Source: an uncultured Desulfobacterales bacterium
Lineage (GTDB): Bacteria > Desulfobacterota > Desulfobacteria > Desulfobacterales > CAJINA01
DNA: 64,000 nucleotides
Assembly (NCBI GenBank): GCA_964636125.1
Contig: CAZWPX010000023.1
Coordinates: forward strand, 1,010 to 65,009
Reading direction: 5' to 3'
Positions 22,542-24,500 of this stretch are shown in pieces. A program made the position numbers and the translations under genes. Every line of letters begins with the position of its first letter. The first letter of the stretch is position 1. A model generated the notes under the pieces. That model saw only the letters and a list, made by a program, of their open reading frames with translations. It did no database searches and had not been told where the DNA came from.

Positions 22542-22584
22542 TTGACAGCCTCCTTTTAATCGCTTATCGTAGATAGACGATTAA
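22542..22584 (+). promoter_or_regulatory. Putative sigma-70 promoter overlapped by a 29-bp imperfect palindrome (candidate ArsR operator)
   Basis: TTGACA at 22542-47 and a weak -10 (TATCGT) at 22565-70, 17 bp apart. The palindrome TTAATCGcTTATCgtaGATAGaCGATTAA spans 22556-22584, just upstream of the arsR SD (AGGGAGG). Confidence 0.4.
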
Positions 22585-22606
22585 ATAACAGCAGGGAGGC
22601 CCCCTT

Positions 22607-22897
22607 TTGCCCAGACCAATCGATATAAGCTTTGACGATGAACAGCTTGCCGGGATTTTCAAAGCCCTGGCCCACCCCGCACGCCTGACCATTATCGAGC
22701 ACCTCAAAAGGGTGAACTGCTGTGTCTGCGGCGAAATTGTGGAAATTCTGCCCCTGTCGCAGTCCACTGTAAGCCAGCACCTGAAGCACCTGAAAACCGC
22801 AGGCCTGGTGAAAGGCGAAATAGAGGGGCCGCGCACCTGCTACTGCATTGACCATGACATCCTTAATCGTTTCAAAGCGGCAGTTGCCGAACTGTAA
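22607..22897 (+). CDS. arsR: ArsR/SmtB-family metalloregulator
   Basis: The TTG start sits 7 nt after AGGGAGG. The wHTH has LSQSTVSQHLKHLKTAGLV and a Cys cluster NCCVCGEI at the position of the ArsR ELCVCDL metal(loid) site. Confidence 0.85.
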   Translation: MPRPIDISFDDEQLAGIFKALAHPARLTIIEHLKRVNCCVCGEIVEILPLSQSTVSQHLKHLKTAGLVKGEIEGPRTCYCIDHDILNRFKAAVAEL

Positions 22898-22931
22898 CCC
22901 CCCAACCCCTTTTAGGAGTATCGGAAATCAC

Positions 22932-24143
22932 ATGGATAAAGAAAAAACCCCGGCTTGTGACTGCAATTCAGCAGCATCCAACAGTCCGCCACCCGGAACC
23001 CAGCCCGTAACCCTGATGGATAAAATGCCTGCCATGGCCACACTTGCTGATGACGAACCCTGCTGCGGACCGCCGGCGGGTCCGCCCGCAAGTCCGGATG
23101 AAAAACCGGGTTATGCCATCCGCAGTTTTGTAGATGGCTTCCTTTCGACCGGCGCAGGAAAGATACCCATTGTAAAAACCCGGATGGGCTTGCAGGATAT
23201 CCTGGGTTCAGTGTTGACCCGCATCGGCATCGGGCGCAACGATTACAAGGTTGCCCCGGGCCTGTACGCGGTCGGCAGCCCGGACGAAGCTGCACCGGTG
23301 ATTGTAACCGCCAACTACAAGCTGAGCTTTGACCACGTGCGCAGGGAACTGGGTGGGCAAAGTATCTGGCTGCTGGTTCTGGATACACGCGGGATAAATG
23401 TCTGGTGTGCCGCGGGCAAGGGTACGTTTGCCACCGGGGAACTGGTGAAAAGAATCATCGAATCCGGCCTTGATAAGGTGGTGGACCACCGCAAGGTAAT
23501 CGTCCCCCAGCTGGGTGCCACCGGCGTCGCCGCAAAAAGTGTAAAAAAACTGAGCGGTTTCCGGGTGATCTGGGGGCCAATCCGGGCTGCTGACATCCCG
23601 GCCTTCATTGCGAACGGGCTGCAGGCCGACCGGGACATGCGGCTGGTCACCTTTACGCCCGTCGAGAGGCTGGTCCTGATACCGGTTGAGATCTCACTGG
23701 TGCTCAAACCCGCCCTGTGGGTCCTGCTGGCACTGTTTATCCTGTCTGGAATCGGCCCGGGCATCTTCTCTTTTGCGGGCGCCTGGCAACGGGGCCTGTG
23801 GGCCGCCCTTTCCATCCTGCTGGGCATCCTGGCCGGCGCGGGCCTGGCACCGCTGCTGCTGCCCTGGCTCCCGGGAACGGCCTTTGCGGCCAAAGGCTTC
23901 ATGACAGGATCGGTCCTGGTACTGCCGGCCGCAATTGCAGCGGGCCTTACCTACGGGTTCAGCGCTTTCCTGGCATTGCTGGGCCTGGCAGCCGCATTGA
24001 GCTCCTATCTGGCCATGAATTTTACCGGCACCACCCCCTACACGTCGCCGTCCGGGGTTGAAAAGGAGATGCGCAGATTCATCCCCATTCAGGCCACCCT
24101 GGCGGTCTGCGGCCTGGTGTTGTGGATAGTATCTGCGTTTTGA
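22932..24143 (+). CDS. hgcA: Mercury methylation corrinoid protein HgcA
   Basis: The diagnostic cap-helix motif NVWCAAGK lies at 23397..23420. It is preceded by a CFeSP-like corrinoid domain (VIVTANYKLSFD) and followed by 4-5 TM helices. I chose the start at 22932 (MDKEK). Confidence 0.9.
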   Translation: MDKEKTPACDCNSAASNSPPPGTQPVTLMDKMPAMATLADDEPCCGPPAGPPASPDEKPGYAIRSFVDGFLSTGAGKIPIVKTRMGLQDILGSVLTRIGIGRNDYKVAPGLYAVGSPDEAAPVIVTANYKLSFDHVRRELGGQSIWLLVLDTRGINVWCAAGKGTFATGELVKRIIESGLDKVVDHRKVIVPQLGATGVAAKSVKKLSGFRVIWGPIRAADIPAFIANGLQADRDMRLVTFTPVERLVLIPVEISLVLKPALWVLLALFILSGIGPGIFSFAGAWQRGLWAALSILLGILAGAGLAPLLLPWLPGTAFAAKGFMTGSVLVLPAAIAAGLTYGFSAFLALLGLAAALSSYLAMNFTGTTPYTSPSGVEKEMRRFIPIQATLAVCGLVLWIVSAF

Positions 24144-24206
24144 TATCGTTTTTACACGTTCAACCAAGTTGATACTTACAACCAAGATGGAGAAGAGGTT
24201 CAATCC

Positions 24207-24500
24207 ATGAAAGATTTCAGACACCTGCCAGACGTCACCACACTGGCTTACGATAGCTCTAAATGCGTGGGCTGCAAAGCCTGTGCAACCGTTTGCCCCC
24301 ACGGCGTTTTCGAAATGAATGCCAAAAAAGCCCACCTGGTGGACCGCAACGGCTGTATGGAATGCGGAGCCTGTGCCCTGAACTGCCCATCCGTGGCCAT
24401 CACCGTTACCCCCGGCGTCGGCTGTGCCGCCTACATTATTCAGTCCTGGATAAAGGGCAAGGAAAACGCGGCCTGCGGCCCTGGTTCGGGCTGCTGTTAA
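24207..24500 (+). CDS. hgcB: Mercury methylation ferredoxin HgcB
   Basis: 97 aa with two CX2CX2CX3CP motifs (CVGCKACATVCP and CMECGACALNCP), an extra Cys in GVGCAAY and a C-terminal Cys pair (GSGCC). It sits 63 nt after hgcA. Confidence 0.9.
   Translation: MKDFRHLPDVTTLAYDSSKCVGCKACATVCPHGVFEMNAKKAHLVDRNGCMECGACALNCPSVAITVTPGVGCAAYIIQSWIKGKENAACGPGSGCC

Follow-up and report, generated by a model that had tools for sequence, protein, structure and literature searches.

Predictions of where methylmercury is produced in nature are based on the presence of hgcAB. The closest described systems are the arsR2-hgcA-hgcB clusters of Pseudodesulfovibrio mercurii ND132 and P. hydrargyri BerOc1 (Goni-Urriza 2020; Gionfriddo 2022/2023). 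In Pseudodesulfovibrio, arsR2 shares a transcript with hgcAB, and its arsenic-responsive product regulates the pair. As(III) and As(V) induced hgcA in ND132 and mercury (Hg) did not, and hgcAB was co-expressed with two ars operons. Among 31 confirmed methylators, 14 have a similar arsR gene no more than three open reading frames (ORFs) upstream of hgcA. Here we describe a locus with the same gene order, arsR directly upstream and presumably co-transcribed with hgcA and hgcB, in 64,000 nucleotides (nt) of DNA from an uncultured Desulfobacterales bacterium (contig CAZWPX010000023.1). This whole stretch is called the window below, and loci from other genomes and metagenomes are denoted by L and a number.

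The locus itself is an ordinary case of a known gene arrangement, arsR-hgcAB, and what its comparison with other loci gives is a precise, testable operator. We consider it very probable that arsR, hgcA and hgcB form a self-regulated operon with one sigma70-type promoter, in which ArsR acts on a dyad over the -10 box and is released in the manner of an arsenic-type repressor, and that the operon encodes a canonical Hg-methylating HgcAB pair. Overall, the arrangement, the arsenic-responsive ArsR control and the PCCGP motif of HgcA have already been published. The definition of the operator is our addition, a modest one. No description of it was found in full-text literature searches or in a term search of the ND132 preprint; the AEM version and Goni-Urriza 2020 lay outside the search.

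A dyad over the arsR promoter is conserved together with arsR

Ahead of arsR, the predicted sigma70-like promoter matches the consensus at 10 of 12 positions. Its -10 hexamer is at the same time the left arm of a dyad whose right arm, ACGAT (22577-22581), sits over the expected transcription start at about 22576-22579 (Table 1). To see how far this anatomy is shared, we used 80 genome loci that had been fetched by an HgcA anchor and were therefore blind to the operator motif. An ArsR homologue (52-67% identical) lies directly 5' of hgcA in 26 of them. The regions upstream of arsR in these loci align only at TTGACA-N17(18)-(T/C)ATCGT-N6-NCGAT(A/T)A; spacer and flanks vary between loci, and TTGACA-N17-TATCGT-N6-ACGAT is fixed. 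The -35 box TTGAC(A/G) with a spacer of 17-18 nt was present in 19 of 24 HgcA-anchored loci, with exactly 17 nt in 16, and ATCGT-N6-NCGAT in 77 of the 79 loci examined. The operator of the window recurs at three loci of Desulfovibrionaceae (L018, L055 and L057).

Leave-one-out matrix scoring was then applied to the 25 arsR-containing loci that have upstream DNA and to 46 hgcAB loci that have no arsR. Every one of the 25 had a best site of 19.4-31.1 bits, located 6-155 nt upstream of arsR, whereas none of the 46 arsR-less loci reached 18 bits (Fisher p = 1e-19). Because the site co-occurs so strictly with arsR, the comparison lends strong support to the dyad as the site of ArsR autoregulation. 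Close relatives (HgcA 77-78% identical) point the same way: their intergenic region has diverged except for the -35 box, ATCGCTTATCGTAGAT..ACGAT and the ribosome-binding site, of which GGAGGC is kept. The -35 TTGACA and the auxiliary half-site ATCGC are invariant among them. As judged from these alignments, the conserved island is a classic phylogenetic footprint. A dyad-symmetric operator that lies over its own promoter and is specific to arsR-encoding loci argues for an autoregulated ArsR operon.

Within the window, the site stands alone. An operator matrix of 22 nt, trained only on loci other than the window, gave 29.4 bits for the window site (22563-22584) and 13.9 bits for the next best site in the 64 kb; the maxima in 20 shuffles went up to 16.2 bits. 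The pattern TATCGT-N6-ACGAT with at most one mismatch has three matches in the window, compared with 0.34 expected. Two of these are the core dyad on its two strands, and one is a weak site at 24144-24160. We also considered a second operator in the hgcA-hgcB spacer, at 24142-24163 on the plus strand (GATATCGTTTTTACACGTTCAA), directly 3' of the hgcA stop codon. This site has one mismatch and scores 13.9 bits, and it was treated as a chance match because it falls within the shuffle range and close relatives have no counterpart of it in this spacer. In one close relative, L083, that spacer (4201-4425, 225 nt) holds a long inverted repeat of GATCG/ATCG units (…GGGATCGGGATCGAAATCGCTATCG…CGATAGCGATTTCGATTC…), which is absent from the window.

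The same operator precedes arsenic genes

We scanned metagenome contigs with the promoter and operator pattern itself, and 80 loci were returned. An ArsR homologue (44-85% identical) starts within 300 nt downstream, in the right orientation, in 53 of these matches. In 29 of the 53, hgcA follows, and two further matches also continue into hgcA. Other loci continue into arsenic genes, confirmed by NCBIfam: arsM at L103 and L111, arsD-arsA at L121 and L147, and acr3 at L169. At L112 and L113 the operator stands directly ahead of arsD. At L150 (1552-1700), the full promoter and operator are found directly ahead of hgcA, and the preceding 1.5 kb contain no arsR gene; this arrangement implies that a regulator from another locus acts in trans.

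The regulators of the two groups share sequence features as well. The recognition helix QSTVSQHLK (residues 52-60) is almost invariant in both hgcA-linked and ars-linked ArsR homologues, and cysteines (Cys) 39, 41 and 80, plus Cys78, are conserved in both. These likenesses suggest that the regulator of hgcAB belongs to a clade of common DNA specificity that would also control bona fide arsenic genes, and that hgcAB is wired into an arsenic-type regulon. An arsenic species is favoured as the effector because the operator is shared with ars genes, which fits the arsenic-dependent co-expression seen in ND132. A broader proposal is more tentative, and we give it slightly less than an even chance: the dyad TATCGT-N6-ACGAT(A/T)A may be the site of a widespread four-Cys ArsR clade that controls arsM, arsD-arsA, acr3 and hgcAB, with hgcAB hard-wired, across Desulfobacterota and beyond, into an arsenic or organoarsenical regulon, sometimes in trans. 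If this holds, the shared operator would be a cis-regulatory basis for the unexplained link between arsenic and Hg methylation, and it would serve as a sequence tag for flagging arsenic-inducible hgcAB loci from genomes.

Two further groups of matches came out of the same scan. At L104, L126, L132 and L162, the same operator precedes an ArsR of the clade, but the gene that comes next is thermonuclease-like (SNase/EcnA-like) and is neither hgcA nor an ars gene. Neither ArsR nor hgcA accompanies 25 of the 80 matches. About 10 of these 25 are perfect palindromes (TATCGTATCGATACGATA and similar) in mobile elements of gut Firmicutes (L097, L099, L109, L116, L139, L151, L152, L154, L163 and L168), and we set them aside as an unrelated system. 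Their pattern, TTGACA-N17-TATCGT(ATCGAT or ATATAT)ACGATAAA, lies upstream of small basic proteins and, in some, of a serine recombinase.

The regulator is of the four-cysteine type

The arsR product matches Pfam HTH_5 (1.2e-12) and the NCBIfam model NF033788 HTH_metalloreg of the ArsR/SmtB subfamily (79.5 bits, cutoff 55). Its nearest solved structures are YgaV (3cuo), ArsR (8qkf), CzrA and SmtB. Two Cys clusters stand out, N37-C38-C39-V40-C41-G42 and C78-Y-C80. In an alignment of 75 non-redundant homologues from related loci, Cys39, Cys41 and Cys80 are conserved in 100% and Cys78 in 85% of the hgcA-linked proteins, and Cys38 is not conserved. A first-pass annotation, made by a model from the letters of this DNA, had named NCCVCG as the metal site. 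The motif is there, but as a metal site only its C39 and C41 are conserved, and the pair C78/C80 had been missed.

The As(III) site in helix alpha3 of the R773 ArsR is Cys32-x-Cys34-x-x-Cys37. In the window protein C39-V-C41 aligns with the CVC of that site and the third position is Ile44, so that the protein is not of the R773 type, the third Cys being missing. The spacing of 39 residues between C39/41 and C78/80 equals that between Cys47/49 and Cys86/88, the four-Cys site of ND132 ArsR2 (ND132 preprint, Gionfriddo). By this pattern the window ArsR is of the four-Cys ArsR2 type, with Cys39/41 and Cys78/80 as its predicted site.

A model of autoregulation and its alternatives

In the model we favour, arsR, hgcA and hgcB would be transcribed from the single promoter, possibly on into a solute-binding protein (SBP) gene. 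An ArsR dimer would bind TTATCGT-N6-ACGATTA (22564-22583), in which corresponding bases of the half-sites recur after 11 bp. This is close to one helical turn and would suit a single winged-helix dimer of the ArsR family seated in two successive major grooves. With its left half-site on the -10 box and its right one on the expected start, the occupied dyad would exclude RNA polymerase and shut off all three genes together. The upstream half-site ATCGC may recruit a second dimer or give an alternative register. Release would follow from a thiophilic ligand at Cys39/Cys41 and Cys78/Cys80, most likely As(III) or an organoarsenical.

Several points weigh against this model, in whole or in part. 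First of all, the left half-site is also the -10 box, and some of its conservation could be due to promoter function by itself; against this stand the right arm and the strict association with arsR. The metagenome pattern was derived from the genome loci, which makes the motif statistics of that scan not independent, although its downstream gene content is. A neighbour-joining tree puts the ars-linked regulators mostly apart from the hgcA-linked ones, and effector specificity could thus differ between the two groups. ND132 ArsR2 also responded to treatments that raise S-adenosylhomocysteine, and Zn/Cd/Pb have been suggested as ligands of its four-Cys site, so that arsenite is not the sole candidate ligand. 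Finally, the level of hgcAB transcript was a poor predictor of methylation rate in ND132.

Some of these points feed the alternative that survives best, namely that ArsR senses a ligand other than arsenite (Hg(II), Cd/Zn/Pb, methylarsenite or S-adenosylhomocysteine) and that the operon is then not under arsenic control. Besides the ND132 responses and the separate branch formed by the hgcA-linked regulators, the number of cysteines would suit it: four, and in the window five, compared with three in R773 ArsR. Nevertheless, the same operator and Cys pattern occur with regulators ahead of arsM, arsD-arsA and acr3, and hgcA of ND132 was induced by As(III)/As(V) and not by Hg. We regard this alternative as possible but unlikely. 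The first-pass annotation had correctly noted ArsR-type control of hgcAB in Pseudodesulfovibrio, in agreement with the literature on ND132 ArsR2, and had named Hg(II) beside As(III) as additions for a binding test; arsenic is still the expected signal, and Hg(II), which failed to induce in ND132, is not.

A second question is the register of the operator. The first-pass annotation had taken a 29-bp imperfect palindrome overlapping the -10 box to be the ArsR autoregulatory site. This palindrome is real and does overlap TATCGT; a repeat search gave its arms as 22555-22568 and 22572-22585, 14 nt each and 86% complementary. Seven palindromes of such quality occur in the window compared with 1.2 expected from shuffles, so the palindrome is not rare by itself and its weight rests on position and conservation. 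(Other strong palindromes lie near 12404 and 33671.) The 25/25 versus 0/46 co-occurrence upholds the proposed location, but the register has to be moved: the conserved dyad is centred at 22573/22574 rather than at 22570, and the inner TATC/GATA pairing of the palindrome is not conserved. One may still argue that the 29 bp are the functional unit, either with the outer arms TTAATCG/CGATTAA as the true half-sites or with overlapping dyads for two dimers, as in the 12-2-12 operators of the SmtB/CzrA type. Of 72 unique sites, 36 do have the outer left arm ATCG[TC], which does not vary among close relatives, and 11 other sites have a mirror-image half-site downstream instead, suggesting that three half-sites are often used. 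However, 25 of the 72 sites have no extra half-site, compared with a core of ATCGT-N6-NCGAT kept in nearly all loci; the inner pairing falls in the non-conserved spacer; and the distance of 18 bp between the outer arms is out of helical phase for one dimer. The 29-bp unit thus appears distinctly unlikely to us, and the core dyad remains our choice for the ArsR operator.

We give very little credence to the possibility that the motif is no more than a promoter combined with the binding site of some other, unlinked transcription factor, with ArsR binding elsewhere or nowhere here. TATCGT does meet the -10 consensus at its key positions, and the roughly 10 full-pattern matches in the Firmicutes mobile elements have no ArsR. 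By contrast, the motif co-occurs strictly in cis with arsR; an ArsR homologue follows immediately downstream in 53 of the 80 motif-anchored matches; an invariant recognition helix pairs with invariant half-sites; and the arsR-less hgcAB loci, which need promoters too, do not have the motif.

HgcA and HgcB have the residues of a methylating pair

A search with profile hidden Markov models, the check that the first-pass annotation had proposed, placed both proteins above their equivalog cutoffs. HgcA scored 431.1 bits on NCBIfam NF040863 HgcA_corrinoid (cutoff 275; residues 78-402 of 403), and HgcB scored 121 bits over its full length on NF040864 HgcB_ferredoxin (cutoff 99). Pfam agrees in both cases, with a CdhD match for HgcA and Fer4 families for HgcB. 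At E <= 1e-20, HgcA has 7,997 homologues; among named genomes, the nearest are in Desulfobacterales metagenome-assembled genomes, at 54-59% identity.

Every motif listed in the first-pass annotation is in the sequence. The cap-helix motif NVWCAAGK, a form of N(V/I)WCA(A/G)GK with the cobalt-ligand cysteine and with its Cys codon exactly where it had been reported, is carried by 118 of the 120 top HgcA homologues. The transmembrane domain is also borne out: Kyte-Doolittle hydropathy, which yields an estimate only, gives five hydrophobic segments (~256-274, 292-310, 317-340, 343-361 and 383-401), and five membrane helices have been described for HgcA in the literature. In HgcB, the two 4Fe-4S motifs are C20xxC23xxC26xxxC30P and C50xxC53xxC56xxxC60P, a further cysteine is Cys73, and the last two residues are the reported C96-C97. 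The extra Cys motifs of the HgcA N-terminus, A8-C9-D10-C11 (Cys codons at 22956-58 and 22962-64) and PCCGP, are both in the sequence, but PCCGP is no oddity. An N-terminal extension with PC(U/C)GP, usually Cys-selenocysteine (Sec), was described by Haft (2022 preprint). Of the 118 top homologues in which the cap helix is found, 115 have CCG; where these homologues have a long N-terminus (97), a CxC or CC cluster precedes it in 78. A census of PC(U/C)GP in 78 genome loci, with TGA read as Sec, counted 42 Cys-Cys, 13 C-TGA (Cys-Sec) and 23 with neither. PCCGP is the published Cys-Cys form of PC(U/C)GP; the extra Cys motifs thus belong to the known features of the family.

The cap-helix Cys, HgcB Cys73 and the C-terminal CC pair are mutationally important residues in the literature. 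Membrane-anchored HgcA, with Cys159 in its cap helix and the PCCGP thiol pair, would together with HgcB methylate Hg(II). Since both proteins pass the equivalog cutoffs with all required residues, the standard prediction that the organism is a likely methylmercury producer is well founded. It is extremely improbable that the pair is a non-methylating paralogue or inactive: activity here is predicted from sequence only, fused HgcAB-like proteins exist as a separate NCBIfam family, and native roles besides Hg methylation are debated in the literature, but HgcA reaches only 198 bits on the fusion model (cutoff 285), far below its equivalog score, the mutationally important residues are all there, and neither gene has a frameshift or internal stop.

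Transcription unit and neighbouring genes

The three genes are co-directional, with spacers of 34 nt (arsR-hgcA) and 63 nt (hgcA-hgcB) in which a pattern scan found no promoter-like or terminator-like sites. The same scan found no plus-strand terminator-like site between hgcB and the SBP gene, which may be the last gene of the arsR-hgcAB transcript. A stem-loop that starts 30 nt past the SBP stop codon, with a perfect stem and without a clean T-run, may be the terminator of this arsR-hgcAB(-SBP) transcript. On the other side, the weak hairpin 3' of pfaD may keep transcription of the pfa genes from running into the arsR promoter; 3.3 sites like it are expected in shuffles.

Table 1. Features of the arsR-hgcA-hgcB locus and of neighbouring genes in the window
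Feature	Position	Strand	Description
-35 hexamer TTGACA	22542-22547	+	sigma70-like promoter prediction
-10 hexamer TATCGT	22565-22570	+	17-nt spacer from -35; left arm of dyad
Core dyad TTATCGT-AGATAG-ACGATTA	22564-22583	+	candidate operator; centre 22573/22574
Auxiliary half-site ATCGC	22559-22563	+	direct repeat 7 bp 5' of left core half-site
Imperfect palindrome, 29 bp	22556-22584	+	encloses conserved dyad; centred 3.5 bp left of dyad centre
arsR ribosome-binding site AGGGAGG	22593-22599	+	7 nt ahead of TTG start; read from sequence
arsR	22607-22897	+	96 aa, TTG start; ArsR/SmtB-family repressor
hgcA	22932-24143	+	403 aa, ATG start; corrinoid protein
PCCGP motif, P43-C44-C45-G46-P47	23058-23072	+	Cys codons 23061-23066
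Cap-helix motif NVWCAAGK	23397-23420	+	N156-K163; Cys159 codon TGT 23406-23408
hgcB	24207-24500	+	97 aa; 2x[4Fe-4S] ferredoxin
SBP_bac_3 gene	24568-25368	+	periplasmic solute-binding protein; Pfam 1.2e-31
Stem-loop GGCATAGCAGGT-GTAAA-ACCTGCTATGCC	25398-25426	+	12-bp perfect stem, 5-nt loop
Terminator-like hairpin with T-run	22462-22491	+	weak; 3' of pfaD; pattern scan, consensus match only
DUF3786 protein gene	1726-2325	+	Pfam 1.5e-30
KS-AT-ACP-KR-DH protein	3978-11069	+	2363 aa
ORF without Pfam match	10774-13392	+	872 aa
KS/CLF + 2x FabA-DH protein	13511-20707	+	2398 aa
PfaD enoyl reductase	20704-22344	+	TIGR02814, 680 bits

Several other gene models and groupings were set aside. Opposite-strand ORFs over the three genes (e.g. 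22556-22855 and 23694-24617, minus) are unsupported and were ignored. A longer, TTG-initiated hgcA ORF from 22848 overlaps arsR and is not backed by homologues, which begin MDxEK.... The SBP gene and a 219-aa ORF (within 24526-26385, plus strand; no Pfam or NCBIfam match) were considered as conserved partners of hgcAB; they are syntenic in the closest clade only (L083-L089, L100, L128 and L130) and absent from other loci. A horizontally acquired island was likewise rejected, since no discontinuity of GC content or skew was seen around 22.5-24.5 kb.

The gene 5' of arsR is pfaD in the window, compared with a sigma54 activator and response regulator in relatives; because of this difference, a rearrangement breakpoint lies just upstream of the arsR promoter. 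Immediately 5' of arsR is a gene set (pfa) resembling polyunsaturated fatty acid synthase (3978-22344, plus strand). Downstream on the minus strand, Mrp/Mbh-type antiporter-like membrane subunit genes stand in a row (26389-35056), comprising four Proton_antipo_M proteins of ~500-590 aa and an MnhB/MbhE-like protein. A tblastn search of the 64-kb window found no other ars genes and no second regulator of the ArsR clade, and Rfam gave no match to structured RNAs or riboswitches at gathering thresholds in the 64 kb.

Comparison with known systems

The corrinoid iron-sulfur protein large subunit (AcsC/CdhE; PDB 2h9a, 4c1n, 4djd) shares a homologous corrinoid-binding domain with HgcA (E = 1e-13 over residues 56-227); the Cys cap helix, the five-helix membrane domain and the N-terminal Cys motifs distinguish HgcA from it. 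No HgcA structure was present in the PDB copy searched. Like the selenoprotein HgcA (PCUGP) described by Haft, the window protein has an N-terminal extension before the corrinoid domain, with P-C-(U/C)-G-P about 30 residues ahead of a conserved PGY. It differs in coding Cys (TGC, 23064-66) where the Sec form has TGA, and in having a further CxC pair (C9, C11) nearer the N-terminus.

The regulatory part of the locus resembles the ars operon of E. coli plasmid R773, whose ArsR is the canonical As(III)-responsive autorepressor. There, an ArsR/SmtB winged-helix repressor with CVC in alpha3 is the product of the leading gene, represses its own operon and acts on an operator overlapping the promoter, as proposed for the window. 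The window protein differs in that it has no equivalent of Cys37, with a C-terminal CYC pair instead, and the cargo of the operon is hgcAB rather than arsenic efflux or reduction genes. The ATCGT-N6-ACGAT half-sites are not known to be related to the R773 operator. Closer in architecture are the ars operons of uncultured bacteria (L103, L111, L121, L147, L155 and L169), which share TTGACA-N17-TATCGT-N6-ACGATAA as well as the recognition helix and the Cys39/41/80 pattern. The regulators of these operons share 44-59% identity with the window ArsR and for the most part form clusters separate from the hgcA-linked proteins, and most of their sites have no extra upstream half-site.

The closest systems are those of ND132 and BerOc1, with which the window shares the order of the genes and a CxC...CxC four-Cys ArsR2 of identical 39-residue spacing. 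The window ArsR has the extra, non-conserved Cys38, and Desulfovibrionaceae ArsR homologues are only 52-58% identical to it. HgcA of ND132 is of the Cys-Sec form, whereas that of the window is Cys-Cys.

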